DNA from: Candidatus Fermentibacterota bacterium
Lineage (GTDB): Bacteria > Fermentibacterota > Fermentibacteria > Fermentibacterales > JCC-6
DNA length: 64,000 nt
Assembly (NCBI GenBank): GCA_963845085.1
Contig: CAWJQI010000004.1
Coordinates: 835,232-899,231 of the forward strand
Reading direction: 5' to 3'
Below, one piece after another: positions 36,740 through 60,027 of the stretch (position 1 is its first letter; each line of letters opens with the position of its first letter). A program made the translations under genes and the position numbers. Below the pieces are notes generated by a model. The model worked only from the letters and a program-made list of their open reading frames with translations, was not told where the DNA came from and searched no databases.

Positions 36740-37441
36740 TCAAAGAGTCCATCCGACCATCCGGTATGTCAGGTCCGGTCCCTCGAACCCGACGGACAGG
36801 CATTGGATTGCTGCGGCGAAAACTGTGTCGTCAAGACACCATACGTCCTCGATACCGTATCCGAACACCCAGTTCTCCAGACAGGCTGCCCGGCCGATGC
36901 CTCCTACCACCCGCGTTTCTCCGGAGCTGTTGTCTGTCAGCTCGACGGAGAGAGTCACGGGCGGAAAACCCCAGATGTCCTCCATCTCAGTCCCGGGAAT
37001 CTCTTCGGTTCTAAGCCCCAGTGTGAAATCTCCGATGTAATAGTAAGGCGAAAAATAGGTTGTGCAGAATGTCACGGAATCACCCATCGGAGTCATGTCG
37101 GTCGGTGGGTGGTGAACAAGCCTGCCGCCCTCAACCCAGCCTTCACTCGACAGCTCCCCGAGCAGCCCGACCGCCTGACTCATGCTGAGCTCCCTCGCAT
37201 CATCCCCACCGCAGAACTCGTCTTCCAGTACCACCGCAAATTCCCCGGCAATTGAGCTGTCGTGCGTGGACTGGATGCTCAGGGTGCTCCAGGGAAAGCC
37301 GCTTCCGTCATAGATCCCGTACTGCTCCCAGGCGAAGTATGCGCCGTCCGCAGAGAATCCGATGAAACGCAGTGAGGCAGCGGCCGCACCAAATGCTGAA
37401 CCGGTCATCGAAACAAGAAACAACATGATGCAGGGCCGCAT
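36740..37441 (-). CDS. DUF2259-like secreted protein
   Basis: Signal peptide followed by IGFSADGAYFAWEQYGIYDGSGFP. Confidence 0.75.
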   Translation of the reverse strand: MRPCIMLFLVSMTGSAFGAAAASLRFIGFSADGAYFAWEQYGIYDGSGFPWSTLSIQSTHDSSIAGEFAVVLEDEFCGGDDARELSMSQAVGLLGELSSEGWVEGGRLVHHPPTDMTPMGDSVTFCTTYFSPYYYIGDFTLGLRTEEIPGTEMEDIWGFPPVTLSVELTDNSSGETRVVGGIGRAACLENWVFGYGIEDVWCLDDTVFAAAIQCLSVGFEGPDLTYRMVGWTL

Positions 37442-37722
37442 GAAGTCCTCCCTGGAACGATGTACACTTGTCTGGCTCCAGTCGGCCGGCGCACCCGCCT
37501 TTCCGGCCGCCACCGTCAGACAGAAATCAACCTTACGCCCTGGTCCCCTTGAAGTCAACGAGCCGGAACGATGACAGGGATGCCATTGACACCGCTGGAA
37601 CCTTCATCTATCTCACCTGCACGGGAGAATATGGACTGACAGCGGTATCAACGGGGGGATGCCGGAATGCAGTACGGTTCAGGCTTGTCGCGCAATGCGG
37701 AACCTTTGACAGGGACAGCGCA

Positions 37723-39198
37723 ATGAACCAGATCCTCCTGTTCAATCTGGCGTTCTGTGCCATCATTTTTCTGCTCAGCATCTGGTGGTGCCTGAAAGCG
37801 GGCAGCAGCGTACCCTTGCTGATAGGGATCGCCTTCCTGCTGTTCGGGGTTTCACATGTTGCCACTGTTCTTGACCTGACAACGGAGTTCAGGGTCCATC
37901 TGATAGTCATCCGAAGCACCGCGTATGTACTTGTGGCAGTGGGGATGCTGCTCACCACTCTCGGGATCGTCAGGCGGAAAAAGGCTGAGGATGAGCTGAA
38001 AAGATCGCATGAAGAGCTCGAGCAGAGGGTGAAGGACAGAACAAGTGAACTGGCCGATGCAAACGAATCCCTGATCAGCGAGATAAACACGAGAAGACTC
38101 GCCGAGGAGGAAGTGCGTCTTTCCGAACGAAGGCTGCTCGACATCATCGATTTTCTGCCTGATCCAACCGTGTCGGTCGACTTGAACGGAGTCGTCATCG
38201 CCTGGAACAGGGCCATGGAGGAGATGACCGGTGTAAGGGCCGCTGACATGCTCGGAAAGGAGAACTGCGAGTACTCCGTCCCCTTTTACGGGGAGAGAAG
38301 GCCGATGCTGCTTGACTTCATCCTGAAACCGGATCCCGACATCGAGAAACTCTATCCCGGAATCATTCAGAGAACTGGAAGATCAATAATCGCCGAAGCT
38401 TCCCAGATTCACCTCCAGGGCAGGGATGTCAGCCTGTGGGCTAAGGCCGGGCCTCTGTTCGACATTCATGGAAACATTACGGGAGCCATTGAAACAATAC
38501 GCGACATCACGGACAGGAAAAAAGCCGAGGAAGCGCTAAGGCAGGCAAACAGAAAACTGAACCTCCTCTCCGACATCACCAGGCACGACATAAACAACCA
38601 GATTCATGCCCTGAAAGCCTACATGAGTCTTTCGACAGAGTCTCTTGAAGATGCTTCACGAATGCGCGAGTACATTGCCAAGGAAGAACAGGCCCTGAAC
38701 TCCATAGAACACCAGATCGGCTTCACGAAGGAGTACCGTGACCTTGGGCTGCACGCCCCGATATGGCAGCAGGTGGCGGCGTGCATCGAAAGTGCGGGGA
38801 ATGCACTCCCGTTGGGCGGTGTTCGTATCGAGCCGCATGTGGCGGGATTGGAGGTCTACGCGGATCCGATGCTGGAGAAGGTGTTCTACAGCCTCATTGA
38901 AAATGCGCTCAGGCACGGAGGGGAAAGGCTTTCGATCTTGTCGATCAACTTCTCGGATACGGAAACAGGGCTTGTTATTACGGTTGAGGATGACGGCATA
39001 GGGGTGCCGCCGGAAAACAAGCCGCTGATTTTCAACAGGGGTTTTGGCCACCGGACCGGCTTTGGTCTCTTCCTCTCCAGGGAGATACTGTCCATAACCG
39101 GCATCACCATTGCTGAAACTGGCAGGCCTCCATCAGGGGCCAGATTCGAGATATCCGTGCCAGGTGATGCCTGGAGATGGCATAAAAGCGGTCCGTGA
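37723..39198 (+). CDS. Membrane PAS-domain sensor histidine kinase (Methanomicrobiales-like)
   Basis: Three TM segments, PAS/PAC, ITRHDINNQ H-box, ENALRHG, EDDGIG, TGFGLF. Confidence 0.9.
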   Translation: MNQILLFNLAFCAIIFLLSIWWCLKAGSSVPLLIGIAFLLFGVSHVATVLDLTTEFRVHLIVIRSTAYVLVAVGMLLTTLGIVRRKKAEDELKRSHEELEQRVKDRTSELADANESLISEINTRRLAEEEVRLSERRLLDIIDFLPDPTVSVDLNGVVIAWNRAMEEMTGVRAADMLGKENCEYSVPFYGERRPMLLDFILKPDPDIEKLYPGIIQRTGRSIIAEASQIHLQGRDVSLWAKAGPLFDIHGNITGAIETIRDITDRKKAEEALRQANRKLNLLSDITRHDINNQIHALKAYMSLSTESLEDASRMREYIAKEEQALNSIEHQIGFTKEYRDLGLHAPIWQQVAACIESAGNALPLGGVRIEPHVAGLEVYADPMLEKVFYSLIENALRHGGERLSILSINFSDTETGLVITVEDDGIGVPPENKPLIFNRGFGHRTGFGLFLSREILSITGITIAETGRPPSGARFEISVPGDAWRWHKSGP

Positions 39199-39451
39199 AA
39201 CCACCCTGACCTGATTTCACCAAAGGCCACACATATGGATGGTGAGTGCGCCTGCGTTTTCGTTCCGATGATGGGATACGATGAACATGGCCGTTTCGTG
39301 AAGCAAAAGCCGCGATGACCCGACGGCAAAGCGCATGGAGTAAAGAGCCGCATTTTGACATCCTGCGAAGCCAGGCTTAGTTTTGGTCAGCGAACTCTCA
39401 CAGACCAAAATGGAAGCAGTTCCTTCCTCTTTCCGGCCCGGGAGGCGTTGA

Positions 39452-39817
39452 ATGAGAATCGGAGCAGTTCTTGCGGGTCTCGCATTATTCACTATTTCGC
39501 CTGGTATTGCGCAGGATGACGGGGAGTACTACTCCGGAGAACAGGAAATCCTGGATCAGATCGAGGCAGAGGATGACTCGCTGTCGGGCGGTGATGAAGA
39601 GGAGTATTACATTTACGTCACTCCCCTGACGACAGAGGATGTCACCGACGACTACTGGGATTCGCTTGAAACCGATACCGAAACGATGCGGGATGAGGGA
39701 GAACAAGGCTTCGACACCCCCGGAGCCTTAGAAATCCTTCAGGAAGACTTTGACGCTCTTCCTGTTGAAGTTCCTGTTGTTCCGGAACCCACCCCGGTTG
39801 ATGAGGAAGAGGAGTAG
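39452..39817 (+). CDS. Small, highly acidic secreted protein
   Basis: GGGAGG RBS, signal peptide, D/E-rich. Confidence 0.6.
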   Translation: MRIGAVLAGLALFTISPGIAQDDGEYYSGEQEILDQIEAEDDSLSGGDEEEYYIYVTPLTTEDVTDDYWDSLETDTETMRDEGEQGFDTPGALEILQEDFDALPVEVPVVPEPTPVDEEEE

Positions 39818-40177
39818 GGTCGGCTCCTGCTCGCGGGTGAAACGTGAGCTTTGCGTTTGGCCAACAGTTTAAGCGGCTCTGCAGGAGCTGTAACTTCCAA
39901 AGATTATTAACGGCATTCAGGTTAGGAACAGGGCGACCACCTGCTGTTTTCCGATCGGATTCCCCTGATTCCGCTCTACCACCATTGGGCTTTGGAAAGG
40001 GCACTCAGCCCTGATTCTCCTCCGGGATGATCACGTCCTCGAAGGAGTTCTAGTCCTGTTGATCCGGCTTGTTCTGTTTCAACCAGTATCACATCGATCG
40101 ACTCCAGCATGTCGCTCCAGAGCATCGGACACCCTCCCTTGCCCCTGACGGTCTGCACACTTCGCCTTAACAGCGCG

Positions 40178-40216: not shown

Positions 40217-40504
40217 ATGAGATTCATAAGCGTTCGCGACCTGCGGGGAAACTCCGGTGCCATTTGGCGTGACCTTCCCGATGAGGGTGAGATGGTAATC
40301 ACAAGCAACGGACGACCGGTTGCCATGCTTGCAGCGGTGGATGAAACTGACGTTGAGGAATCCATTGCTGCCTTCAGACGGGTAAGGGCGGAACGGGCGA
40401 TAGCCGACCTTCAGAGGGCTTCAATTGCCCAGGGTACGGATTCAATGTCCATGGAAGCCATTGACCAGGAGATAAGTGATTCAAGAAAAGCACGCCCCCG
40501 ATGA
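40217..40504 (+). CDS. Phd/YefM family antitoxin
   Basis: MRFISVRDLR..EMVITSNGRPVA. Confidence 0.85.
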   Translation: MRFISVRDLRGNSGAIWRDLPDEGEMVITSNGRPVAMLAAVDETDVEESIAAFRRVRAERAIADLQRASIAQGTDSMSMEAIDQEISDSRKARPR

Positions 40505-40911
40505 TGAGGATTGTCTTTGAAACCAATGTACTGGTGTCAGGGTTGCTGACCCCCTTTGGCATGTGTGCCGATCTGGTAAGGCTGTTTACAACCGATGAGG
40601 TAATCCTCTGTGTCGATTCCCGTATCCTGCTGGAGTATGAGGAAGTGCTGGGAAGAGAGCGCTTCCGTCTTGATCAAAAACTGGTATCGGTTCTTATGGA
40701 GTACATCAGAAGAACGGCGGAGCTTCACTCATGCATGCCTCTGAGCGAACCACTCCCCGATCCGGAAGACTGCTGCTTCCTCGAGGTGGCCATCGCCGCT
40801 CATGCCGATTGCCTGGTCACAGGAAACACGCGACATTTCCCCTCCGGTCTCCGATACGGAGTCAGGGTGCAAACCCCGTCAGAGTCTCTTGCAATGCTGA
40901 AAGAGCGTTGA
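40501..40911 (+). CDS. PIN-domain toxin (PIN_3 type)
   Basis: RIVFETNVLVS, EYEEV, PDPED..FLE, LVTGN.RHF; coupled to the antitoxin. Confidence 0.85.
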   Translation: MMRIVFETNVLVSGLLTPFGMCADLVRLFTTDEVILCVDSRILLEYEEVLGRERFRLDQKLVSVLMEYIRRTAELHSCMPLSEPLPDPEDCCFLEVAIAAHADCLVTGNTRHFPSGLRYGVRVQTPSESLAMLKER

Positions 40912-40992
40912 TTCCTGAATTAGAAAACTGCTCAGGAGTGAAACTGTGGCTCAGGCAGGGGGTGCTACCCTGATTTACATTGAGCCGAACAG

Positions 40993-41110
40993 TGGTACCT
41001 GACAGACCTTATCAAACCAGTATTACATTCATTGGCCTCGGGTGGTCTGGTTACTGGGACGGGCCGGTGGTGGTGGCACAAGGGTTGAGAAATCCCCGGA
41101 TGGCGCATCC
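40993..41110 (+). pseudogene. Degenerate relic of the cassette HTH element
   Basis: GYWDGPVVVAQGLR aligns with DHWERRVVTERGLR; downstream DNA is homologous to 44880-45060. Confidence 0.55.
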
Positions 41111-41235
41111 AGCCAGCTAGTCCGACTTATCGTCATGATCCTGAACAAGGTGTCTATTGACGCATTTCATATTCATCTGTATTTGATTCAGTAGTAGTAG
41201 AGCCTGCAGAGATGAGTGTCCCTGAAAGGGTAATT

Positions 41236-42677
41236 GTGAAGACTTTGCTGGCATTGGGTTTTCTAGTGAGCAGTACCCTGACGTTCGCTGAAGCAAATCC
41301 ATCCCTTGCCACCCTACTGACTCCCGACGGAGAGATTTCAGAAGGGCATGATACGGAAGGCACCTGGCATGCCCTGGGAAGTGGTATTGAAGGGATTGTA
41401 CCATCTGTCATTGACATCGCTGTGGGAGGCTCGGGTGTGTACGCAGGAGGTGATTTCACACTGGCTGGTGGCAACCCTGCCAATTACATCGCCCGCTGGG
41501 ACGGCAGTTCCTGGCATACCCTTGGAAGTGGATTGAACTACTTTGTTTATGCCATATCAGTGAGTGGTTCAGATGTTTATGCGGGGGGTACTTTTACTCA
41601 GGCTGGTGGTGTCTCGGCCAACTGTATCGCCCGCTGGGACGGCAGCTCCTGGCATACTCTGGGAAGTGGATTAAACCACTTTGTTTATGCCATCTCAGTG
41701 AGCGGCTCCGATGTGTACGCAGGAGGTGATTTCACCCTGGCTGGTGGCAATCCTGCCAATTACATCGCCCGCTGGGACGGTAGCTCCTGGCATGCCCTGG
41801 GAAGTGGGGTCGGAGGAGGCGCATACCCGTATGTCGTTGCCATTGCGGTGAGTGGCTCCGATGTGTATGTGGGAGGCCGCTTCACCCAGGCTGGCGGTAA
41901 CCCCGCCAACTACATCGCCCGTTGGGACGGCAGTTCCTGGCATGCGCTTGGAAGCGGTTTGAACGACATGGTAACCGCAATCGGAGTGAATGGTTCGGAT
42001 GTTTTTGTCGGGGGTGATTTCACCCAGGCTGGCGGTAACCCCGCCAACTACATCGCCCGTTGGGACGGCAGTGCCTGGCATGCACTTGGAAGTGGATTGA
42101 ACAGCTCTATTCGTCCCATCGCAGTGAGTGGTTCGGATGTGTATGCGGGGGGTACTTTCACCCAGGCTGGTGGCATCCCCGCCAACTGCATCGCCCGTTG
42201 GGACGGCAGTTCCTGGCATGCACTGGGAAGTGGCGTAGGAGGTGGTTCACTCCCATGTGTCATTACCCTCGCCATAAGCGGTTCCGATGTGTTTGCCGGG
42301 GGTGATTTCACCCAGGCTGGTGGCAACCCGCCAACAACATCGCCTGTTGGGTACCGGAGCCAACCGGAATCGAACCACCCATGGCTGAGGTGTTTCCTGG
42401 CGGCAGGTCTTCGCTCCAGGCTTCACCCAATCCCCTGACTGACGGAACGAACCTCTCCTTCCAGATCACTGGGGATTCCCCGCTGACACTTGAGATCTTC
42501 GACATTGCGGGACGCCTTGTGAGAGATCAGGAACTTGGAGCCCTGCTGGCCGGTTCACACACCCATTACTGGGACGGGCGTGACGAAAAAGGTTCCGCTT
42601 TGGCATCGGGTGTGTACTTCGTACGGCTTTCCAGCACGGAGTTCGAAGCTTCCACACGGGTGATTCTGATTAGGTAG
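41236..42677 (+). CDS. Secreted 7-repeat beta-propeller protein with FlgD/T9SS-type C-terminal domain; frameshift at about 42326
   Basis: Signal peptide; 7 repeats of WHxLGSG..VYAGGxFTxAGG..ANxIARWDGSS; one C is missing relative to sister repeats; CTD ASPNP..IFDIAGRLVR..WDGRD..LASGVYFVRL. Confidence 0.85.
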
Positions 42678-42696
42678 AACGGCCCATGAACGAATG

Positions 42697-42720
42697 AAGG
42701 GGAGTCGAAAGGCTCCCTTT
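42697..42720 (+). terminator. Intrinsic terminator (second copy at 44508-44531)
   Basis: GGGAGTC-GAAA-GGCTCCC-TTT. Confidence 0.7.
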
Positions 42721-42742
42721 CTCTGTTTCGCGTTAACTTGGT

Positions 42743-42756
42743 GTATTTGGTACGCC
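42743..42756 (+). repeat. att-like core copy 1
   Basis: GTATTTGGTACGCC, identical to 53714-53727. Confidence 0.85.
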
Positions 42757-42765
42757 AAAGCGCGG

Positions 42766-43101
42766 ATGGCTCAAACCGGATCCGGACCGACTTTCCCCCT
42801 CATAACCTTCCGTCCTGACATCCCCATACCCCGCAGAGGTCCATTACGCAACCCGCTCATCTTCGCTAGGGAACTCGATGATGAACTGCTCCGTGACAAC
42901 CTCACCCGGGTTCAGCTCGGGAAAAGGCACGGCGTCACTTCAGACCGGATCACCCAGTGGCTCTGCCTGATGAAGCTACCGGAGGAGAAGCAAAGAGAAA
43001 TCGAATCCCCGGGGGATACCGAAGGGTGGCGGGAAGAGAAAGCTGAAAAGACAGTATCGCATTCACACCAGAGAATCTGTCACATCTATAGCCAGCGATG
43101 A
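42766..43101 (+). CDS. Cassette HTH mini-protein copy 1 (C-terminus degenerate)
   Basis: RNPLIFARE..LTRVQLG.RHGVTSDRITQWLCLMKLP; diverges after IE. Confidence 0.6.
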   Translation: MAQTGSGPTFPLITFRPDIPIPRRGPLRNPLIFARELDDELLRDNLTRVQLGKRHGVTSDRITQWLCLMKLPEEKQREIESPGDTEGWREEKAEKTVSHSHQRICHIYSQR

Positions 43102-43171
43102 AAACACGATTTGATTCTGCCGTCAGACTCATTCCGGTTTTAGGGTCGTGACTTGACCGAGTAAGTCATAG

Positions 43172-44488
43172 GTGTATCTTCCTGCAGCTATACCAGCAGA
43201 TAGGTGGTACATTCTGAAAAACATCCTTGGTTCAGTGTCACTCGCATTTATTCTTCTGCTGGCCGTTTCTGGAACAGGGCTGGCGCAGTGGAACGGCCAG
43301 GTCGTGGCGTTTGGAGCTGGACAACCGGGTCAGACTGGATGGCCCCATTACGGCCAGTGCAGTGTGCCTTACCCGAACAGCGGTTTCGTGGCTGTAGCGG
43401 GGGGATTGTTTCATAGCCTCGGCTTGAAGGAAGACGGCACCATTGTGGCGTGGGGGGTTGATGACGGGGGTGAATACGACTTCGGACAAGTTACCAACAC
43501 CCCAACAGAGGGTGGATTCGTGGCCGTAGCGGGGGGATCGTATCACAGCCTCGGCCTGAAGGAAGACGGCACCATTGTGGCGTGGGGGGTTGATGACGGG
43601 GGTGAATCCGACTTCGGACAAGTTACCAACACCCCAATAGATGGTGGATTCGTGGTCGTAGCGGGGGGATCGTTTCATAGCCTCGGCTTGAAGGAAGACT
43701 GCACCATCGTGGCATGGGGGAGAAACAACGAAGGCCAGTGCAACACTCCTTCACCAAACAGTGGTTTCGTGGCTGTAGCGGGAGGGGCCCAGCACAGTCT
43801 TGGCTTGAAGGAGGATGGTTCCATTGTAGCGTGGGGGTTCAACCTTTATGGCCAATGCAATGTTCCTTCACCGAACAGCGGTTTCGTGGCGGTTGCAGGA
43901 GGAGCCCAGCACAGTCTTGGCTTGAAGGAAGATGGTTCCATTGTAGCGTGGGGGAATAACTATTTCGGCCAGTGCGATGTTCCTTCACCGAACAGTGGCT
44001 TCGTGGCTGTTGCGGGTGGCTCCCAGTTCAGCCTCGGGCTGAAGGAAGACGGTTCGATCGTGGCATGGGGGGACAACAACTACGGCCAGTGCGACATTCC
44101 TTCTCTCAATAGCGGCTTCGTGGGAGTAGCGGCTGGAAGGTGCCACAGCCTCGGGCTTCGGGAGATTAGCACCTCGGTCGAAGACTCAGAATACGCAGCC
44201 GTTAACCCTGCATCCCTGATGATTCATAGCATCTTTCCCAACCCCTTCGACAGCCATGTTACGCTCTGCTTCGAATCTCCCGGCCTTTCAACCGTTACCC
44301 TTACAGTACATGACACCTCGGGACGCGTGGTGAGATTGCTTGATCTGGGAGCACTGCCTATTGGTTCCCATATCCACTACTTGGACAGTTGTGACGAAAA
44401 CGGAGCCGCTCTGGCCTCGGGAGTGTACTTCGTGAGGCTTTCAAGCGAGGAACAACAGGCTTCCATAAAAGTGGTGCTGATAAGGTAG
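43172..44488 (+). CDS. Secreted RCC1/BLIP-II-like 7-repeat beta-propeller with FlgD/T9SS-type CTD (start uncertain)
   Basis: 7 repeats of FVAVAGG..HSLGLKEDG.IVAWG; CTD IFPNPF..DTSGRVVR..LASGVYFVRL. Confidence 0.88.
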   Translation: MYLPAAIPADRWYILKNILGSVSLAFILLLAVSGTGLAQWNGQVVAFGAGQPGQTGWPHYGQCSVPYPNSGFVAVAGGLFHSLGLKEDGTIVAWGVDDGGEYDFGQVTNTPTEGGFVAVAGGSYHSLGLKEDGTIVAWGVDDGGESDFGQVTNTPIDGGFVVVAGGSFHSLGLKEDCTIVAWGRNNEGQCNTPSPNSGFVAVAGGAQHSLGLKEDGSIVAWGFNLYGQCNVPSPNSGFVAVAGGAQHSLGLKEDGSIVAWGNNYFGQCDVPSPNSGFVAVAGGSQFSLGLKEDGSIVAWGDNNYGQCDIPSLNSGFVGVAAGRCHSLGLREISTSVEDSEYAAVNPASLMIHSIFPNPFDSHVTLCFESPGLSTVTLTVHDTSGRVVRLLDLGALPIGSHIHYLDSCDENGAALASGVYFVRLSSEEQQASIKVVLIR

Positions 44489-44553
44489 AACGGCCCACGG
44501 ACAAAGTAAGGAGAGTCGAAAGGCTCCCTTTCTCTGTTTCGCGTTCGATTGGT

Positions 44554-44567
44554 GTATTTGGTACGCC
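44554..44567 (+). repeat. att-like core copy 2
   Basis: GTATTTGGTACGCC, identical to 53714-53727. Confidence 0.85.
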
Positions 44568-44576
44568 AAACCGCGG

Positions 44577-44879
44577 ATGACTCGAACCAGATCAGGGGCT
44601 TCTTTCTCCCTGAAAACCCTGCGCCCGGACATTCCCATACCCCGCAGAGGTCCCTACAGGAATCCACTGATCTTCGCCCGGGAACTCCATGAGGAAATGC
44701 TCCGGCATAACCTTACCCGGGTTCAGCTCGGGCAGCGGCACGGCATTACTTCAGACCGGATCACACAGTGGCTCTGTCTGCTGAAGCTGCCGGAAGAAAA
44801 GCAACAGGAGATCGAGGACCTGGGGGACCACTGGGAACGGCGGGTGGTGACTGAGAGGGGACTGAGGAGAGAGAAGTAG
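44577..44879 (+). CDS. Cassette HTH mini-protein copy 2
   Basis: 100 aa; ParB-like HTH LTRVQLGQRHGITSDRITQWLCLLKLP..VTERGLR. Confidence 0.72.
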   Translation: MTRTRSGASFSLKTLRPDIPIPRRGPYRNPLIFARELHEEMLRHNLTRVQLGQRHGITSDRITQWLCLLKLPEEKQQEIEDLGDHWERRVVTERGLRREK

Positions 44880-45025
44880 TGTCACATTCAAGCCGGCAAT
44901 TACAGCGCATTGTTATATGTGGGGACAAGGTATCCATTGACGTATCACGTGTCCACAGGTATTTACATTCCGTTGTAGTACAGCCTGAAAGCTGAATCTC
45001 CCTGAAAGGGGGACACATTAAGGCT

Positions 45026-45265
45026 ATGTCGACATTGGGTCTTCTCGTGAGCAGTTCTTTGGAATGCTTTGAAACCCTTCCGGATAATGTCACGTCCTTC
45101 GGTGGTTTCAGCATAGCAGACATCGACAGGGATGGCGTTGTCGAGATGGTCTTCGGCACCAGCGACGGACGCCTTCACTGCTGGGAACTGGGTGCATGCA
45201 CATCCGGCTATGCCCCCTGGCCCCAGTTCCAGCATGATGAGGGAAGAACGGGTGTTCTGCAATGA
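45026..45265 (+). pseudogene. C-terminal fragment of an FG-GAP-repeat protein fused to a signal-peptide remnant
   Basis: IADIDRDGVVEMVFGTSDG..WPQFQHDEGRTG; ATGA overlap with the next gene. Confidence 0.65.
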
Positions 45266-46683
45266 CAGTTCTCGGGCTTCTCTGTCTCTGGCTCTCCGGG
45301 GTTACCCCGAGTCCGGGCTGGAGCACACCGGTTCTGGTGACTGATTCCTGCAATACTCAACGCCCGGTTGTTTTCGTCCATAGAGACGACCTTGGCAGAT
45401 TTCATCTTGTCTGGGCAGGATATAATGATAGCAACAGAATTGCATACAAGATGTTCTCTCTAGACGGAAGCACTTTATATCCTGAAACAATGATATCACG
45501 CGATGTAACGAGTGCGTACCTTTCAACCATGGTCACCGGTGATAGCCTTTACGTCTTCTGGAGAGAGACCAGTCCGGTTTACTACGCCGTCCGCAGTCTG
45601 ACTGACGGCAGCGAGATCGTGCCAGCCACCTACCTGTTCACGACCTACACTCTCTATCCCTACATCAGGGCATGCCCGGACAGCCTTGGCAGACTGCATG
45701 TGATCTACAACGACGGAAGCGATGTCAGGTATGCAGTATGGACGCCGGCACCCGGATCAGGCTTCACTGTCGAGCGTGACTGGAAGATTGAAGGGGCAGA
45801 CGCGGGTGGAGTTCTCCTTGTTGACGGGAACCGGGTTCATGTCGTGGTGCAGGATCCGGTGGATCACAATTATTCCTACCTCCAATACGACCTTAATGGG
45901 AATACGGTTGTACCAATCACTGACTTTACTCCAGACTACATTATTTGCAATCGGTTCCCGGAACTTGCCGTTGATGAGAACGGTAATCTTATAGTAGTTC
46001 ATTTGACTTCAGTTGATGCCTATTGCTATGTGCTGTGGAAGCTGGATAAGTACAGCGGATTCACCATGATAAACCAGAAGGTCATAGTTACATCTGAACC
46101 ACCGGAAATGTATGTCAGCCTGGAATTCATCCTTCGCAATATACATGGAACTGACCTTTTCTACCTTGTGTGGACAGACAACGGCCAGGACAATCAGATA
46201 CTTTTCCTCCTGATGAACGGTAATGGAGATGTGGTAGTTGACTGGGCGATTGCATACGACTATTCGGACGAGGACCCTGAAGGTCTGCCTTGCATAAGTG
46301 GAGAAGCCGATGCCGAGGGTAATCTGTACATCGCTTATGAACAGGCTGAGACCGAGCCGGTCTTGGGTAATTACCCCACCTTCGGCTGGTTCGACTACGA
46401 TTACGTCAGCACAGCCAGACAGCAGGTCGCTGCCGTTCCTGGCGATGGATTCAGTTTCTCATGCAATCCCGTGGCGGGTTCCGTCACCGTTCGCACCGGT
46501 TCAGAGACACAGACACTTCGCGTATACGACATCACCGGGAGAGAGGTTTCGAGTATTCCGGTTTCTGACGGAACAGGCATCTGGTATGGCAGGGATTTCT
46601 CGGGAGTCAGACTGCCCGCGGGGATCTACACCGTTGTCGGGCAGTCAGGTATTATACATCGATTGACATTACTAAATCATTAG
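45262..46683 (+). CDS. Secreted beta-rich protein with FlgD/T9SS-type CTD
   Basis: Signal peptide; repeats DDLGRFHLVW / DSLGRLHVIY / DENGNLIVV; CTD SCNP..VYDITGREV..W.GRD..LPAGIY. Confidence 0.82.
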   Translation: MTVLGLLCLWLSGVTPSPGWSTPVLVTDSCNTQRPVVFVHRDDLGRFHLVWAGYNDSNRIAYKMFSLDGSTLYPETMISRDVTSAYLSTMVTGDSLYVFWRETSPVYYAVRSLTDGSEIVPATYLFTTYTLYPYIRACPDSLGRLHVIYNDGSDVRYAVWTPAPGSGFTVERDWKIEGADAGGVLLVDGNRVHVVVQDPVDHNYSYLQYDLNGNTVVPITDFTPDYIICNRFPELAVDENGNLIVVHLTSVDAYCYVLWKLDKYSGFTMINQKVIVTSEPPEMYVSLEFILRNIHGTDLFYLVWTDNGQDNQILFLLMNGNGDVVVDWAIAYDYSDEDPEGLPCISGEADAEGNLYIAYEQAETEPVLGNYPTFGWFDYDYVSTARQQVAAVPGDGFSFSCNPVAGSVTVRTGSETQTLRVYDITGREVSSIPVSDGTGIWYGRDFSGVRLPAGIYTVVGQSGIIHRLTLLNH

Positions 46684-46688
46684 TAGTC

Positions 46689-46697
46689 TGGTACGCC
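46689..46697 (+). repeat. att-like core copy 3
   Basis: TGGTACGCC; left flank ACATTACTAAATCAtTAGTA matches the flank beside the tRNA (53697-53716). Confidence 0.8.
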
Positions 46698-46706
46698 AAA
46701 CCGCGG

Positions 46707-47009
46707 ATGACTCGAACCAGATCAGGGGCTTCTTTCTCCCTGAAAACCCTGCGCCCGGACATTCCCATACCCCGCAGAGGCCCCTACCGGAACCCTCTCC
46801 TATACGCCCGGGAACTCCAGTTGGAGATGATACGCCACAACCTTACCCGGGTTCAGCTCGGGCAAAGGCACGGCATTACTTCAGACCGGATCACCCAGTG
46901 GCTCTGTCTGCTGAAGCTACCGGAAGAGAAGCAGCGGGAGATTGAAGCCTTGGGAGACCACTGGGACCGGCGGGTGGTGACGGAGAGGGAACTGAGGCGG
47001 TGGCGGTAG
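46707..47009 (+). CDS. Cassette HTH mini-protein copy 3
   Basis: 100 aa; the 92 bp from the core are identical to copy 2, and the next differences are mostly synonymous. Confidence 0.72.
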   Translation: MTRTRSGASFSLKTLRPDIPIPRRGPYRNPLLYARELQLEMIRHNLTRVQLGQRHGITSDRITQWLCLLKLPEEKQREIEALGDHWDRRVVTERELRRWR

Positions 47010-47071
47010 TGCGCATTCAAACCGGCGAATCTGTCACATCTGTAACCGGTGTAATTTCAGTGTGATAGAGC

Positions 47072-48775
47072 TCAAGGGTCAACTATCATAATCCGACCGG
47101 TGGTGACATTCCCGGAACACTCGAAGTGGACAAGATAGATGCCATTTGGAGCAAGAGATCCAGTTTCAGTTCTTCCGTCCCAGAGTACATCAGAGCCATG
47201 CAAAGCATTTAAAGTCCAGACAACCCTTCCCGCAAGATCGAATAAAGTGAGAGTTCCCTCGAGTGATTCTGACCCAGACCCGGCAGCATCACAGAATGAA
47301 GCCCGATCGGACTGCGGTACGTTAATAATCCAATTGCCATCTCCACCTCGACGCGCTGTAACTCGCTGATGGTCTCTGATATCCTCTCTTCCAAACACAA
47401 GGATTTCGCTGGCACCCTCTACACAAGCAATTCTGAGAAACCTTGTTCTAAGGCTGTCTTCTCCGAGGTCCGTCCTTGATGAAAGAGAGCCTCTCTCAAC
47501 CATGTGCATAAGGGAGGCATCCGAGAGAGTGGACGAAGACTGGTCTTCTCTTTGCACAATGACTGAAGTGATGGTGTGAACAGCTCCCAGGTCGATTTCA
47601 ACTGAATGTGCCCCCGGGGAGGGTCGATAGTACCCATCAAGCCTTCCGTCAGTAAGACACCATGGGTTTCCTTGAGCTTCAGTTCTGAATCCAGCAGCAT
47701 CTCGGTTTGACACAAGTGATGCCATGTCAAAAAGCTCACAGACTGGTTTTCCCAAAGCAACATTTGATCCCTGAGGGATGTCAAACAGCAGCCTGACGCT
47801 AGGTTCGGACTCCTGCCCGCCATCAACTGCTGTGACCCAGTACTCGACGCTGGAGTGTTCTACTGCAGGAAACCGATCTGTGTAGATGCTGACACCAGGA
47901 TATGCAAGGCCCAACAACTCTATTTCACCACTTGCTGGGAAACACCTGAAAACCTGATGCAGTAGCTGTGAACCATCGCCCGCACAGAGCATACTAGAGC
48001 TCTCAAGTCCGCTCCACGAAAGATGAATCACTGCATTGCCTTCTTCGATATGTATATCACCTGTCAGGTCTGGCTGAAGTGGAGCTGAAGATTGGATCTC
48101 ATTGTTGTCTAGATCAAAGAACTGACTGACATGATAGGTCTGTTGAAATCCTCCACCGCCTTGCGAAGAAAGCTGCTCCCAATTCACGATTATCTCTTCG
48201 CCAGTGAGTCCGAGTTGTGGATTGAGTGAAGGTATATGGTTCGGGATTGAGATCTGATTGCTCGAGATGCCGAGGGGAACACCCGAAGCAGTCGGTAATG
48301 CACTGTAACAAACGAGATGCCCCGTACAGCTTTCAATTTCCGGCGGTTCCGCGACGACAACTTGATCATAATAGAACACGAATAGATATCGACCGGACTG
48401 AGTATTCACGGCATTATACCATATCATTTCATCAGATGTTGGAATACTCAGTTGAAACGAGTCCCATTCGTCCGGTCCAGTGGGTCTTGCTAGATAGACA
48501 AATGGGGGTTTCTCAAAATCGTACCAATGTTGCAGCCAGAAACCACCCCAGTCAGGACAAATCCCATGAATTTGATACTCACCATCAAAAGGGCCAGATG
48601 AAGGGTTCATATCCACACTTAATCCCAAGTCATCAATAAGGTGCACCTCTGTCACAAATGTGAGTGGTGGAAACCTGTAACCCCTAATTCGGTAGTCAGG
48701 AGGCCAAGTCGTTGGTTTACACCAAATGTCAATATCACCCCATGAATGGAGTGTGTCTGCGAAACCAACTTCATA
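47072..48775 (-). pseudogene. C-terminal half of a large secreted protein (FN3-like and discoidin-like segments plus CTD) separated by IS3
   Basis: No signal peptide; frame stays open upstream of the listed GTG to about 48775; YWVTAVD..ESEPS, NVALGKP..EIDLG, LFDLAGRVV..WDGR..APNGIY. Confidence 0.7.
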
Positions 48776-48825
48776 TTAGGTAGAATATAGAGTGAATTGG
48801 GTTTTTTAGATACATGTTGGTGGTA

Positions 48826-49915
48826 GCTTTTAAGGAGTCGTGGGGACGCTGCTCGTTGTACTCTCGATCCATTCTCCGTGATCTGACTGCTCCAGGTTCT
48901 CGAACAGGTAGCGTTGAGAACCTCGTTGCGGTAGGTTTGGTTGAAGCGCTCGATGAAGGCGTTCTGATTCGGCTTGCCGGGCTGGATGTGGCGCGCTCCA
49001 CGGCGTTCTCCTCGCACCAGGCACGAAGGCCTGGCTGAGAAGCTCGGGGCGTTGTCGCAACGGATCGCTGGCGGTGTGCCCCGCCAGTTCTTCAGGCGTT
49101 CGAGCACCTGCACGACGCGCTCGCCCGAGAGCGAGGTGTCTACCTCGATGTCGAAGATTCCCGGATCCCCTCGTCGAGCACGTTCAGCGTGCGGAAGCGG
49201 CGTCCGAGTAGAGAGCATGTGCATGAAGTCGAGAGACCAGATCGCGTTGGGTCTGTCGGCGCTTACATGGGCAACGGTCCGGGTGGGTATGCGCTTCTTT
49301 GTGTGCGTTGTCTGTTCAAGCCGAGCTCCGTGTAGACCCGGTGAACGCGTTTGTGATTCCAAGGATGGCCGTCGAGACGCAGCCGGTCGTAGGACTTCCA
49401 GAAACCCCAGCGGTTGTAAAGCACCAGCAACGCCTGCAGGGCCTCGATAAGCTGCTGTCGTACTCCCGCCAGTCCCGGAAGGGTTGTACCACGCCGAGCG
49501 CGACAGACCACAAGCTCGCGTGAGGACGCACCGACAGTGTCTGCTCGGCCACCAGATACGTCGCGGCTTCTCGGCGTTCTAGCGGTGTTGGAGTTTTTTT
49601 GAGAGAAGCTTCTTCAGGGCATGGTGCTCGAGGCTGGAGTCGGAGTACATGCGCTTGAATCGGGTGTTCTCTGTCTCGAGCTCCTTGATCCGCTTAAGCT
49701 CCGAGGCGTCCAGGCCGCTGTACTTCGTCTTCCAGTGGTAGAAGGTGTAGGCGCTGATGCCGTGCTGGCGGCAAATCGGTGACGCGACTCCGGCATCGGC
49801 TTCTCGCAGGATCGCCACCGTCTGCGTTACCGTGAACCTGGATTGTTTCATCTCGACCTCCTGGGTTGGCAGGAAGTCTCACTCTAACAAATGTCCACTA
49901 AACGGGGGAGCTCCC
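48826..49915 (-). mobile_element. Degenerate IS3-family (IS407-like) element
   Basis: OrfA 49579-49851 (MKQSRFT..CRQHGIS..FYHWKTKY); frameshifted OrfB (WNHKRVHRVY, WSLDFM, RCDN, PGKPNQNAFIERFN); left IR ..CCCCCGTTTAGTGGACA; right IR not found. Confidence 0.88.
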
Positions 49916-51708
49916 GCTGTTGTGTTCATCCAGATTGGGCTGGCAACCGTCTCAGGATCGGTGTCAATTGGATTGCCCGTAAGGTCTTTGGGTACACTAC
50001 TACCATCAGGGCTTCCAATGTGAACTCTAATCTGGCCAACATATCCGGGCCAGTTTGTTTCTGTTTCGTAGCAGACCCAGTAATGAGAACTAGTCGGGTT
50101 CAATTCTCCCAGTATTGTACGCCAAGGTGCTGGATATAGGATACCTTCCTCCCCCAGATACAGTGAGTTGAAGATAGGTTCTGCTGTAGTGCCGCCTCCA
50201 GTCAGCCAAACACATCCTAGGTCATCCTCATTCATCTTTTCCGAGTACTTCACGGCGACGCCGATAGTGCTTTGCCCACTATCAAACAAGCTCCAATTGT
50301 CAATAGCATTCTGCACTCTGAGTTCCGCTATTGGATCTGCAGAATCTGACGTTGTCCAACCGCCCCTGAATCTGACACTGAATGGAGACAATTGATAGAC
50401 AATTATCGAGTCCACATGCGGATAGAAGTTATCAATAAGAAAGCCCCTTGGATCCTTAATGATCGGATTTGCATAGCAATCAATGGCTGGCAGCGTTGCT
50501 GTTCGCCTACTGACTCCATCCTGAGTTGTTGCTGTAACATTTACCCAGTATCGACCGTCACAGAAAATCGAGTGCTCATTGACATATGCCGTTGGGGCTT
50601 GTTGTGAACCTCCACCCCCGAACATTTCTCTTAGCCTGGTATCCAATCCACCGATATTGTAGTGGCTCTCTTGCCAGTCATGGGAAACAACTGAAGGGTA
50701 GTCAACAATATTGTCAATACCGGTCTCGCCCGTCGGAAAATCACCGCTGTTTGTGATAATGTAGTTGTTGAAAAAGGGACCAACTATAGGTCCATCGGGT
50801 CCTTCGTCAGCAAATAAAGCCTGATACTCCAACATATCAGCAGAATTGTCATAAGGCAATGTGCCATTCATGGTGAACACAATACGATTACTTTGTATAG
50901 GGCAAATTAATTGAGGACTATATATATTCTGCCGAACAATATCGTATGCAATCTGTCTGACCCCGCACTTACCACCAACACCAAAAGAGGTCGCGGTCAC
51001 TGAAAGCGGGTTGACGACAAAGTCGACAGCACCATTAAATACCCTCTGGAACATAGTTCTGTCTTGGCTCGGGTCATCATTGAATGCTTCGTCACCGTCT
51101 GGAAGAACGATGATCCCTTTGCTAAGTGAGCTTGAACCAAAGATTTCTGTCTCCCAATCCCGCACTCGAGCAAACTGAACTACCTGGTATCCTGTTGGAA
51201 CGCTTTCAATCCAGTCGAAAGGATTGTGGTAAGTTAATTCAATATCTGGTATTTGATCGAACCATGCTGGAACCCAGGCAACATGTATGTGACGGTAAGT
51301 CAAGGATGTGGTCATGGCAAGAGTTTGCTTTGGTATTCCAGCACTAGTGTGATAGTCATGGTACCAAATCCTTGGATTTGGAAAATTGATATGCCCATAT
51401 GACCATCCCCAAGTATCCGCGTTGTCTGTTCCGAAGCAAACAATCTGGTTGTCAGGGCTAGAGGATTGTGCCCAGGGAATTCCAATTGCATACCATGGCT
51501 GATTAGCGGGAGACAGCACATAGCTTCCGGTTGTTTGGTTCGGGTCGGTGAAATCAAGCCCTGCATGGAAGCCCTGAACGGCTCTGTCACCATAGCCTAT
51601 GTCGCAGGTCTCAAGGGTTCCTGCTGGAGTTCCTCCGAAAATTGGCCCGGAGAAGTCCCAGTGGGGTGCCGGTACAAAGAGCAAAGTTACGAGGAGTGAA
51701 GCCAGCAT
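49879..51708 (-). CDS. N-terminal half of a large secreted protein with an M23 peptidase-like domain, truncated by IS3
   Basis: Signal peptide; FHAGLDF (HxxxD), YGHI, HIH, NPF; the last ~10 codons come from the IS end. Confidence 0.72.
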   Translation of the reverse strand: MLASLLVTLLFVPAPHWDFSGPIFGGTPAGTLETCDIGYGDRAVQGFHAGLDFTDPNQTTGSYVLSPANQPWYAIGIPWAQSSSPDNQIVCFGTDNADTWGWSYGHINFPNPRIWYHDYHTSAGIPKQTLAMTTSLTYRHIHVAWVPAWFDQIPDIELTYHNPFDWIESVPTGYQVVQFARVRDWETEIFGSSSLSKGIIVLPDGDEAFNDDPSQDRTMFQRVFNGAVDFVVNPLSVTATSFGVGGKCGVRQIAYDIVRQNIYSPQLICPIQSNRIVFTMNGTLPYDNSADMLEYQALFADEGPDGPIVGPFFNNYIITNSGDFPTGETGIDNIVDYPSVVSHDWQESHYNIGGLDTRLREMFGGGGSQQAPTAYVNEHSIFCDGRYWVNVTATTQDGVSRRTATLPAIDCYANPIIKDPRGFLIDNFYPHVDSIIVYQLSPFSVRFRGGWTTSDSADPIAELRVQNAIDNWSLFDSGQSTIGVAVKYSEKMNEDDLGCVWLTGGGTTAEPIFNSLYLGEEGILYPAPWRTILGELNPTSSHYWVCYETETNWPGYVGQIRVHIGSPDGSSVPKDLTGNPIDTDPETVASPIWMNTTAGAPPFSGHLLE

Positions 51709-53030
51709 TACTCCATCTCCTCTCTTCTGAGCGCAACAATGTACAGCTTGTATGACTCAACGAAGAAGGCAAGTACACTGCCGTCAGGCCTCGGAAGAAC
51801 CCAGTTGTTCGGACCAAGGTAATCCAGAGAATGGTTGAAAGAGTGAGTAACGCCATAACTGTCTGATACAGGAACGAGCAGTAAAGGTGTCATTGCAGGC
51901 GATACTACAGCTATCGCTTTTGACTCTGCTCTTTCTGAAACTGCTCCGATTGTCCAATAGTCGTCTGAGATTCCAAGCACCCAGAAGTAGAAATTGCTGA
52001 TTCCAATCCTCATGTTACTAAGCCCTTCCTCAAAGAGCTCATTAGGTGAATACGATCTTCTCTCCACAAATCTGGAAGCTACAGAACCGAGTGTAAAAAA
52101 ATGCGTAAGGTTGGTATCAGTGACCACACTTGCGTAACTGCAAGAGCCATTTGATACAGCCGTTACCATGGAATTCGAGGGCCATGAATACTCCGCTGAA
52201 TCAAGGATGCCACCGGTCCTTCCATCCAGCTTGTACATGGAACCGTTTCTTGTAAGGCAGAAAACAGTATTCCCATCCGGTGTGATTTGCACATCCACTG
52301 GAAAATCACCCTCCTCGATTCTGAAGACCCAGAGAAGGTTTCCGTCCCAGTCAAAGGCTCCCATCGCCGGAAACCCGTACCCCGGAAGACCGGCAACGAA
52401 AATGTCCTCCTCGCTTGCGACATCAAAGTATCTGAAACTGTGTTCAACCTCAACAAACTTCGGCGCAGCGGAAAGGTTCTCTCGGTCATACACGTTGAAC
52501 CCATGAAGCTGATCCTGGTTGCTGTCAGTCACGCCAATGACGCGTCCTGAACCTGATACGAGAAGACCTGCGGAGGCTCCACCCGGAGCGGGATCAAAGG
52601 TTTCTGCAGTCCAATTGTCGATATCGATGAGAACGGCAGTGTCCCCGTGATAAATGTAATCACTCGCGACGGTTCGTTCCGCTCCTTCCCTGAGGGATTG
52701 AACGGCGATGAAACGGCCGTTTGTAGAAGTGGCTACCCTTCTTGTTAGAGAGGTAAGGATGTACTCTCTAGGGGATGTCCAGTCTTCCTGCAGAACCACG
52801 ACTTTGTCATCCCCCACGATGACAACCCTCCAGACCTCTACATTACCGGATCTTACGATGAAGGCATCAGCGTAATAACCGTCGTACATTATTGGGGCTG
52901 CGTACTCTGCGGGATCGATTGTCACAAGGCTACTGATTGTCCATCCAGGCGCAACCCACCAGTCTTCAGGAACGGTGTTGGAGGAGAGTGATGACTGTGC
53001 GAGAAGGACAGAAACGATTAGTGGCAACAT
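51708..53030 (-). CDS. Secreted beta-propeller-like protein
   Basis: AGGAG RBS, signal peptide, DWDGNLLW / ITPDG / LDGRTG motifs; translationally coupled to the next gene. Confidence 0.7.
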   Translation of the reverse strand: MLPLIVSVLLAQSSLSSNTVPEDWWVAPGWTISSLVTIDPAEYAAPIMYDGYYADAFIVRSGNVEVWRVVIVGDDKVVVLQEDWTSPREYILTSLTRRVATSTNGRFIAVQSLREGAERTVASDYIYHGDTAVLIDIDNWTAETFDPAPGGASAGLLVSGSGRVIGVTDSNQDQLHGFNVYDRENLSAAPKFVEVEHSFRYFDVASEEDIFVAGLPGYGFPAMGAFDWDGNLLWVFRIEEGDFPVDVQITPDGNTVFCLTRNGSMYKLDGRTGGILDSAEYSWPSNSMVTAVSNGSCSYASVVTDTNLTHFFTLGSVASRFVERRSYSPNELFEEGLSNMRIGISNFYFWVLGISDDYWTIGAVSERAESKAIAVVSPAMTPLLLVPVSDSYGVTHSFNHSLDYLGPNNWVLPRPDGSVLAFFVESYKLYIVALRREEME

Positions 53031-53469
53031 TATCCTGCTCCTTTTCGGGCTAAAAAAACGATGTAATAACTAATACCGTAAGTTAGCATGACAGTAGTCA
53101 GTTATGCTTGCACACAGTGAAAATGACTGGCATTTCACTCCTATGTGTTACAACAACGACAATTTTATCTCCGTATAAACAATGCACTGGCAGGAAGTGT
53201 CATGTCAATCCCAGTTCAGGTGTACTGTGGTTTCTTATGTAGGTGCAACTTTACTTACATACGCTCTTATTGCCCTCATTACCCCAGAGATGGACTGTTG
53301 GTGTGCTGGCGATTTGACTTGCATCCATCGCAGGAATGGAGAACTGCTGTTGACAATTCTCTACGGTGATTGGGCAGCTAAACTCATAAGACACCCAGCC
53401 GGGATGATCATTGAGACCTCACTCGGAATTCGTCTCATGGCAAGGTGACAATGGGCTTCAGCCTTCCCG

Positions 53470-53625
53470 GGCAGGCTTGTTGATGATATTGCAGAAGAAG
53501 TGTTCCCGGCTGGAAAGCACATGCTGTGCTTGGAACGCCTTCCCTGCTCTTGCAGCGGGATGTTACCTTGTAAGGTTGCTTCCGAGAGTGTGATTGACAC
53601 AGAGACCTGTGTTTTGCTGCACTGA
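53470..53625 (+). pseudogene. Frameshifted relic of a FlgD/T9SS-type CTD
   Basis: GRLVDDIAEEVFPAGKH / WNAFPALAAGCYLVRL / SESVIDTETCVLLH* in three consecutive segments separated by two frameshifts. Confidence 0.6.
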
Positions 53626-53718
53626 AAGAGTGAATTGATAGAAGGGGGGTGCCCCTCTTAATGGTGAAAACCATGAATCGCTTTATGCGCTATATTACAT
53701 TACTAAATCAATAGTATT

Positions 53719-53795
53719 TGGTACGCCCGTAGGGAATCGAACCCCAAACCTTCTGGTCCGTAGCCAGATGCTCTATCCAATTGAGCTACGGGCGC
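53719..53795 (-). tRNA. tRNA-Arg(ACG)
   Basis: GCGCCCGTAGCTCAATTGGATAGAGCATCTGGCTACGGACCAGAAGGTTTGGGGTTCGATTCCCTACGGGCGTACCA: cloverleaf, anticodon ACG, encoded CCA. Confidence 0.97.
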
Positions 53796-56070: not shown

Positions 56071-56580
56071 GTGAACGAAAAGATACTGCTTGTCGAGGAT
56101 GATGTCGCGCTTGCTGCACTGGTCTCCCGCTACCTGTCGGGGCACGGTCTGCTGCCCAAAAGTGAGCACGTAGATGTTGCAGCTGTTGCCGACGAGGTTG
56201 CAGCCTCTGAGACATGGGGCAGGGAGGGAATCGAGATTTCGCTGACCGGTGAGGCATCGGTTACCACTGACAGGGAGATGGTCGTAAGGGTGCTTTCCAA
56301 CCTTTTATCGAACGCAGTCAGACACGCTTCGACAAGGGTGGAGGTTGAGATCGCGGGAAGCGCCACTGCCGTTAAGATACAGGTGAGCGATGACGGACCG
56401 GGTTTTCCGCCGGGCATCCTTTCCGCAGGCTTCATCCCGTTCATGAAGGGAGGGAACAGCCAGGGTGTCGGCCTTGGAATGTCGATCGCAAAGCGTGCCG
56501 CATCGATCATCGGCGGAGAGATCCTTGCGGAGAACACCGCTCAAGGCGGAGCAAGGGTGACTCTGGTAATCCCCGTATAA
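56071..56580 (+). pseudogene. In-frame fusion of a response-regulator N-terminus to a histidine kinase HATPase_c domain
   Basis: KILLVEDD..LVSRYL (~27 aa) joined to NLLSNAVRHA..DDGPG..GVGLG. Confidence 0.7.
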
Positions 56581-56585
56581 GAGAA

Positions 56586-56607
56586 GGGGGCGGGTTTCCC
56601 CGCCCCC
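56586..56607. terminator. Hairpin between convergent genes
   Basis: GGGGGCGGG-TTTC-CCCGCCCCC. Confidence 0.6.
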
Positions 56608-56616
56608 GGCCATTCC

Positions 56617-59442: not shown

Positions 59443-59583
59443 ACATCATCCCTTTCAGAGGAGAATTGCTTTATGGAACAATGAAAATGAACACACCACA
59501 AACGACATTCACCGCCGGGGTGACTGCCGGTCGAATTATAAATCATTGAAAGATACGCAAAGGCAGTGTCTTTGACCACCTGC

Positions 59584-60027
59584 CTACAATGGTGCCTTCA
59601 ACTCCATCCGAAGTGGACTCCCGTCGGGCAGGGTGGCGATGAAAGTCAGCCCTCCTTCGGCTCTCTGCCTTGTTTCGATAAGTGTGATGCTGCAGTCGCG
59701 GAGAAGCCTTGTCATCCTCAGATTGGCCTGTGTGACTGTGTACGCGGCAATGTCGAGGTCCATTGTGAGTATGGTCGTGTCGCCTGAGAACGACTGTCTT
59801 GGGAGGTTGCCGTAAATAAGCGCCGAGCAGCCCTGTGCAAGCCGGTCGACCGGGTCCGAAGGGTTTTCAACCAGGTTCGTCTCCCCTCCGGCGCCGCTGC
59901 TTATCATCCCTGCGTTCAGCCCCGGCATGAACGCAGTCACAGCAATGCCGCCGGCGCAGATCAGCAACAGCATTATGACAAGAACCTCGCCGGGTTTCAT
60001 TGAGGGCCTTTCCACTTGTTGCACCAT
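59584..60027 (-). CDS. Hypothetical protein with N-terminal TM segment
   Basis: AGGAG RBS; VLVIMLLLICAGG hydrophobic stretch. Confidence 0.55.
   Translation of the reverse strand: MVQQVERPSMKPGEVLVIMLLLICAGGIAVTAFMPGLNAGMISSGAGGETNLVENPSDPVDRLAQGCSALIYGNLPRQSFSGDTTILTMDLDIAAYTVTQANLRMTRLLRDCSITLIETRQRAEGGLTFIATLPDGSPLRMELKAPL

Follow-up and report, generated by a model that had tools for sequence, protein, structure and literature searches.

In Dehalococcoides, islands carrying serine recombinases lie in tandem at ssrA, 15 of 31 of them without an integration module, and dsiB there overlaps the attachment (att) site; the authors suggest that dsiB may be complete only on the circle or beside an island that carries a 3′ fragment (PMC3146451). 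The cis-mobilizable elements (CIMEs) pass through integration, decay, and the arrival of a new element at the regenerated target end, and mobilization of older units in cis has been documented (PMC5704250). The "suicidal" tyrosine integrases of the SSV type have attP, the element-side attachment site, inside their gene, target a tRNA, and are split on integration, a feature said to be exclusive to archaea (PMC8371274). The integrase of phage Mx8 has been named as one extending across attP, and as of 2015, tRNAs were not among the known targets of serine recombinases (PMC4383910). Tycheposons, of which 910 of 937 use tyrosine recombinases, form islands that grow beside tRNAs by repeated visits of integrase-bearing elements (bioRxiv 10.1101/2020.12.28.424599). 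We analyzed a 64,000-nt stretch of a Candidatus Fermentibacterota genome (contig CAWJQI010000004.1 of assembly GCA_963845085.1; hereafter the window), in which a row of repeats, each followed by a coding region for a helix-turn-helix (HTH) protein, runs up to the 3′ end of a tRNA-Arg(ACG) gene.

We read this locus as a stack of attL-type scars, left by tRNA-targeting islands of large serine recombinases (LSRs) whose attP lies inside the LSR gene, and put the probability of this reading at about 0.74. Judging from the sequences, each repeat (hereafter tag) is the element-side half of an att site together with the 3′ end of an LSR gene containing attP, the HTH is the C-terminal domain of the LSR itself, and the window repeats are attachment-site scars of tRNA-targeted integration.

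The two parts of such a gene were found joined in nature. There are three natural LSR–HTH fusions (P0001, P0152, and P0153), including one in G016, a 654-aa LSR whose C-terminus is this HTH, fused in frame through the core. Across 41 genomes, ten LSRs matched at E<1e-50; seven read into a tRNA in antisense (two of them at tRNA-Arg(ACG), in the same genus), two read into an HTH tag, and one was truncated. Similarly, among the 24 closest homologues of the G005 LSR, 21 end in a tRNA-Arg antisense peptide and one in a tRNA-Asn peptide, the other two being truncated or partial. The LSRs of G004 and G005, which lie at tRNA-Arg(ACG), both scored above cut-off for PF00239 and PF07508, while PF13408 was above cut-off in the former and just under it in the latter. 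Window tags 2 and 3 are complementary at 17/18 bases to the arm ending the G005 LSR, in the same frame for tag 2, and allowing up to two mismatches, the complement of this arm occurs in the 2.45-Mb source genome only at these two tags. The first-pass annotation, made from the letters of the window alone, had taken the repeats for tRNA-targeted attachment scars, which these LSRs and their arm complement support; the recombinase beside HTH homologs that it proposed to look for was also found, both as fusions and as LSRs running into tags. A second, distant LSR family (L073, L074, L067), present also in a genome outside the order, reads into tRNA-Glu in antisense. Viral contigs contained no relative of the HTH or the LSR, and a metagenome scan with the LSR found no relative.

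The arms and reading frames were then compared. The offset of a CG[AC]A motif is 24 in 56 of 63 tags, whereas in source-genome tRNAs it is 19 (38 of 39). In serine integrases, the distal motif of attP lies 5 bp further out than that of attB, the host-side site (PMC3783163); thus, a motif 5 bp further out in tags than in tRNAs represents the attP/attB signature of these enzymes. From the symmetry of the arms, and counting from the tRNA end, the crossover would fall after the fifth base and before the sixth. Among the 79 junctions whose core could be called, 68 share one frame, ten another, and one a third; in 71, the frame is uninterrupted between core and HTH. For a frame-shifted LSR (L060), the in-frame share was 8/11 among matching arms versus 2/68 among other arms; for the other in-frame LSRs, the frame test is weak, as most tags share their frame. 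The exception is L059, where an LSR is joined out of frame to a non-matching arm, a junction of the same kind as that of the second LSR in G016 described below.

Within the window, the 14-mer reported by the first-pass annotation was confirmed at 42743, 44554, and 53714, and these are its only three matches in the whole source assembly. The core proposed at 46689 stood in part: its 9-mer is common by itself (24 matches in the assembly), whereas a 21-nt extension of it occurs at 44559 and 46689 and at no other site. Approximately 9 nt of the tRNA-Arg(ACG) end recur at the internal cores. An HTH coding region does follow each core, but not as the same ~330-bp element, since the three copies show 76–90% mutual identity and the one at 42748 is frameshifted close to its end. 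In the window tags the ATG lies within the arm, and their sequence shows no evident ribosome-binding site. The lengths given for the core-delimited units, 1811 bp (C), 2130 bp (B), and 7030 bp (A), were correct. In contrast, the degenerate left core supposed for unit D at ~40993 is instead an internal piece of another arm type, with a 14-nt identity to the arm interior in L034, followed by a degenerate HTH C-terminal peptide at ~41040–41100. As had been stated, the window encodes no tyrosine or serine recombinase; all source-genome matches to PF00589, PF00239, and PF07508 lie elsewhere, and the three PF00589 matches, which served as the test for an IntI-type tyrosine recombinase, are all far from it.

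The HTH of tag 2 scored 21.5 bits with Pfam HTH_ParB, just under the cut-off, and the other window copies scored similarly or weaker. With an AlphaFold model of the domain (mean predicted local distance difference test score 81), the top Foldseek matches were the DNA-binding domains of Noc, ParB, and KorB, the best at E 0.008 and none at E≤0.001; Atlas matches were unnamed or ParB-HTH clusters only (0.88–0.93). The median ratio of nonsynonymous to synonymous divergence (dN/dS) was 0.11 (55 pairs, from 11 of 12 selected copies), and pairwise dS among the window copies was 0.56–0.89; the HTH is under purifying selection, and its copies are old. As for its role, we slightly favor a DNA-binding domain that the integrase would possess only when encoded by the circle, and with which it would carry its own switch between integrated and free states. 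That the tag yields an independent repressor or directionality factor seems doubtful by comparison. Complex prediction with residues 165–554 of the G005 LSR and the HTH gave a score of 0.00 and was used neither way.

We propose the following course of events. On the free circle, the LSR frame would cross attP into the ~100-aa ParB/Noc-like HTH, and integration at the tRNA 3′ end would split the gene, both steps being supported by sequence. With a crossover that probably falls at tRNA nucleotides 71/72, the ~555-aa catalytic part would terminate beside the tRNA in a short tail encoded by the antisense strand, and the arm and HTH would come to lie at the far end. Later islands would insert where the tRNA end had been regenerated, displacing older ones outward, as seen in relatives. 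Afterward, the recombinase-bearing side would presumably be deleted, often to an ISL3 end near the tRNA, so that the tag and 1–3 kb of cargo stay. Homologous recombination between tags, with one clear case, would remove or swap units, and a cognate LSR island that arrives later may leave through an outer tag, taking older units along.

Accretion was as predicted in G016, where a 29-kb island reaching from a tag to an LSR at tRNA-Asn has matching ends (14/18), and a second LSR is joined to the tag of this island at a non-matching junction (6/18; both counted by hand). Beside the G005 LSR, the island contains an XRE regulator and restriction-type genes, indicating that autonomous elements are far larger than the units. 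When the Asn-type array of the source genome was compared with G005, the two had two common cassettes at 93–94% identity and flanking genes at 70–77%, and G005 contained one extra 2.07-kb unit, whose breakpoint lies inside a tag. Thirteen DNA read sets matched the stretch (shares of 0.05–0.14), and no RNA read set was listed for it. Four of the 13 were examined and gave short contigs of relatives, in which one joint leads from the right end of unit D into an arm of the tag 3 type, and tag 3 is followed by other sequence.

The HTH was matched in 29 of the 41 genomes, and when 70 genomes of the phylum were searched with an HTH profile, 66 matched at E≤1e-8 and 55 at E≤1e-16; the 11 weakly matching genomes may owe their matches to chromosomal ParB, and these kin are non-independent samples. 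Named records bearing the HTH are titled Hyd24-12 or Fermentibacteraceae. Tags often lie in tandem, as ~2-kb units. The first set of core-to-core units (n=52) had a median of 2.3 kb, with 43 below 3.5 kb, and in the second set (n=24) 23 were below 3.5 kb, a few being splitting errors; the counts include some units ending at a possibly unrelated tRNA. Five of the six units of L158 measure 2.2–2.8 kb, and the single-contig genome G027 has three tags before its tRNA-Arg(ACG). As the first-pass annotation had expected, unit number and content vary among relatives. Of 23 tRNA-Arg(ACG) loci compared in relatives, four break at the tRNA and two carry an LSR, with otherwise very variable flanks.

Integrons consist of IntI beside an array of ordered, short, variable units with attC hairpin sites. 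The window array likewise strings short variable units in order, and the most recent one probably lies closest to the insertion point; however, the array has no IntI, its recombinase would be a visiting serine enzyme, and its junctions are explained as serine att half-sites. The stack works like LSR-island accretion and is neither an integron nor a strict CIME. Tandem islands at a structural-RNA 3′ end and a CcrB-like LSR beside the target are common to it and the Dehalococcoides system, whereas crossover in the latter lies in the T-loop with a 20-bp repeat, and that in the window would lie near the tRNA-Arg(ACG) acceptor end. Furthermore, no folded domain was identified beyond att in Dehalococcoides, whereas the 3′ fragment here is a conserved HTH domain, and the present units, unlike the ssrA islands, are ~2 kb and use several tRNAs. 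CIMEs are also units without a recombinase, in tandem at a recombinase target, but keep attL and attR, whereas window units keep the left element-side arm only. With SSV integrases the system shares attP inside the integrase gene, a tRNA target, and a split proposed to affect directionality; however, those are tyrosine recombinases whose catalytic part is split off, whereas the serine recombinase loses only the terminal HTH, and the window-type LSR keeps its catalytic, recombinase, and zinc domains. Island growth is similar in tycheposons, for which we found no mention of a split gene or a repeated tag. The layout had been called integron-like and without description; instead, serine att half-sites and accretion account for it, and tandem ssrA islands (PMC3146451) and CIME accretion (PMC5704250) are its precedents.

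The ISL3 ends that might have served in trimming were analyzed with a profile trained partly on unit sites. The end in the window lies 45 nt before the tRNA, and the same motif terminates a complete ISL3 in L145. In G001, a complete ISL3 with the window-type end interrupts the 3′ end of an LSR beside tRNA-Asn. In five whole genomes, a script located a tRNA end or tag after 20 of 29 ISL3 pattern matches, inspection by eye added two more, and the control gave 0. An ISL3 transposase was not found in the source assembly. As a separate observation, this ISL3 clade appears to insert in a fixed orientation just beyond tRNA 3′ ends or tags; 6/6 strong source-genome matches and 6/8 ends with a transposase of the clade lie beside a tRNA or tag, and the tRNAs concerned are Arg-ACG, Arg-CCT, Arg-TCT, Asn, Glu, and Ser-CGA.

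It is possible, though we hold it only tentatively, that the stack is a working gene-capture platform, in which intact tags give a visiting recombinase its C-terminus and attP arm. An island at the tRNA would then leave via any outer tag, completing its own gene there and taking the surface-protein units in between to a new host, and the tRNA-seeking ISL3 clade would trim each island to tag plus cargo. If true, this would be an integron-like array, phylum-wide, whose cassettes hold part of the recombinase gene.

The alternative that survives best, although unlikely, is that the units are dedicated non-autonomous cassettes, each moving alone through an LSR made elsewhere, with the right end as a relaxed arm. 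The regular unit size, right ends common to different cargo genes, cargo stop codons 5–21 nt from the core in several genera, and cassettes common to different species at 90–97% identity agree with it. However, no recognizable element-side (P) arm was found at the right ends of the three complete window units (best 9/19), so that the tRNA site at present resembles a free attB. Among the right ends of 52 units, four have a known P arm in register, five have one displaced by 10 nt, and six share a non-P sequence. Matching arms are kept at both ends in 2/52 units overall, which the cassette explanation can claim, and in 0/3 window units, a test that could miss the arms of unsampled LSRs; these counts do not bear out the earlier proposal that cassettes are excised singly in trans. 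Furthermore, the only mapped presence/absence breakpoint lies inside the HTH, away from the core, LSR 3′ remnants and ISL3 ends precede many cores, and the source assembly yielded no LSR of this family. An LSR profile matched none of the 52 units. The displaced P arms (L039, L042, L051, and L055 junctions; L094 and L095 tRNA flanks) all lie exactly 10 nt too far from the core and belong to two different LSR lineages, and many ISL3 ends also lie 10–11 nt from the core. Duplications of core or arm did not fit these displacements in a by-eye comparison.

Slightly less likely still, the tags would go back to one or two LSR insertions, with later growth of the stack due mainly to duplication and homologous recombination between tags and sorting-domain tails, or to ISL3-driven delivery of cargo. 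The breakpoint within a tag and paralogous units with common right ends would fit such growth, as would the ISL3 ends in 17 of 52 units, whose 19 matches all face the core (18 within 115 nt). Near tRNA-Arg(TCT) in G027 (C1:772300–774700; L170, L175, L180), ISL3 ends with duplicated flanks lie 2.2 kb apart, and no HTH tag was detected there, which also speaks for this explanation. Nevertheless, the dS between window tags given above, the alternation of arm types of different LSR lineages within single arrays, and the lack of any opposite-facing ISL3 end in the 52 units argue against it; for the last reason, composite ISL3 mini-transposons were rejected. Finally, an ordinary repeat like a miniature inverted-repeat transposable element, or a mis-assembly, is highly improbable despite several frameshifts in the region and a duplicated contig end, as the nine source-genome HTH matches are clustered in four loci rather than scattered, the copies are 76–90% identical with coding constraint, and the same layout with tRNA-Arg(ACG) occurs in single-contig G027.

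Several results count against our preferred reading of the locus as attL-type scars. Unit size is strikingly regular, which random deletion explains poorly, and the conserved non-P right end (6/52) and the 10-nt-displaced P arm (5/52) could be working mini-sites. The purifying selection on the HTH could stem from the autonomous phase, and 31 of 110 distinct HTH matches have no callable core and stand outside the frame test. No circle, empty site, or activity was seen in the read material, which consisted of contigs of relatives only. The left boundary of the stack was not found by DNA matching in seven same-genus genomes or by synteny comparison. Furthermore, this LSR family was not found in the source assembly, although that assembly is 88% complete and misses tRNA-Asn. 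A second tag array with Asn-type cores (G000 C5:400–2900) faces a contig end; as tRNA-Asn is also missing, an unassembled LSR could lie there.

Table 1. Features of the tag stack and its surroundings (window coordinates unless another contig or locus is named)
Feature	Position	Strand	Basis or description
Phd/YefM antitoxin and PIN toxin pair, probable stack cargo	40217..40911	+	Pfam, NCBIfam
Decayed HTH tag of other arm type, internally deleted, without attachment core	40990..41105	+	Unit D left end
Unit D cargo: DUF5122-type beta-propeller repeats, FlgD_ig/T9SS (type IX secretion system)-type tail in second frame	41212..42677	+	Pfam
Tag 1	42748..43101	+	att core, element-side arm, HTH coding region (ATG 42766), frameshift near end
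Unit C cargo: RCC1-repeat protein with FlgD_ig tail, then hairpin	43172..44488	+	Pfam
Tag 2	44559..44879	+	att core, element-side arm, intact 100-aa ParB/Noc-like HTH (ATG 44577)
Unit B cargo: 79-aa gene fragment and 473-aa secreted protein, weak FlgD-type tail	45026..46683	+	Pfam
Tag 3	46689..47009	+	att core, element-side arm, intact 100-aa HTH (ATG 46707)
Unit A cargo: 527-aa protein, weak discoidin and FlgD-type matches	47072..48655	-	Profile matches
Decayed IS3-family element in unit A	48652..49911	-	Pfam HTH_Tnp_1, rve_3; NF033516 below cut-off
Unit A cargo: 609-aa and 440-aa proteins, hydrophobic N-termini, no family matched	49879..53030	-	Open reading frames, profile searches
ISL3-family inverted-repeat end facing tRNA	53643..53673	+	Profile score 35
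Remnant like last codons of unit B gene, abutting tRNA core	53690..53718	+	Match to 46666-46697
tRNA-Arg(ACG)	53719..53795	-	Antisense 3′ end = host-side arm of attachment site
ISL3 sites	Window 53643-53673; G000 C4:645198, C5:701112, C5:755, C5:2909, C1:45983; L145, L170-L198

The coordinates of the window features are listed in Table 1. The Phd/PIN pair is 83–89% identical in nucleotide sequence to pairs that adjoin tags or lie between them in G003, G004, G005, and G007, compared with 67–71% for the genes right of the tRNA. As these pairs accompany tags in four relatives, the stack probably reaches left of 40993. The unit D gene is separated from its tail by a frameshift near 42330, which may be real or an assembly error. 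The right end of unit C after the hairpin is conserved and not recognizable as a P arm, the 473-aa gene of unit B has its stop codon 5 nt before the next core, and the IS3 element of unit A is 82% identical to copies in relatives. The first-pass annotation had a FlgD/T9SS-type sorting domain ending the cargo of each unit; this held above the Pfam cut-off for D, frameshifted as it is, and C, but the matches were weak in B (23 bits) and A (17 bits in one of three genes). Its view that the cargo is enriched in secreted proteins fared better: sorting-type tails, searched with profiles seeded from window cargo, were ~5 times denser in units (31 in 144 kb) than genome-wide (107 in 2.45 Mb), and only 26 of 52 units contain one.

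Further left, a PAS histidine kinase and an acidic secreted protein at 37468–39817 may be older island cargo; 37400–40100 had no DNA match in seven same-genus genomes. The proteins encoded at 14–40 kb of the window showed no synteny with the loci compared in relatives, where no empty site was identified. Contig C2 opens with the same sequence as the window from ~56100 to 64000, an overlap of ~8 kb in the assembly. Elsewhere, two satellite-like islands (G000 C1:1–46000 and C5:306000–334000) have common backbone genes including a small serine resolvase; one begins at an HTH tag, and the other ends in a tyrosine integrase at tmRNA.

Our literature search, which left most subscription journals outside, turned up no report of an LSR whose HTH lies beyond attP, of such arrays in Fermentibacterota, or of ISL3 elements that target tRNAs. 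The stacking of foreign genes in bacteria is known; what is new here is an HTH domain encoded across attP, together with the compactness of the tagged units and the presence of ISL3 ends. The analysis defines by sequence a family of serine integrases that target tRNAs, with predicted attB and attP pairs. We also propose a natural domain-swap switch, in which the extra DNA-binding domain would be present only when the LSR is encoded across attP; the idea raised for DsiB thereby becomes directly testable, and it bears on the control of direction in serine integrases. For the uncultured phylum itself, the tags would represent countable records of past insertions and help to explain the variation in its secreted proteins.

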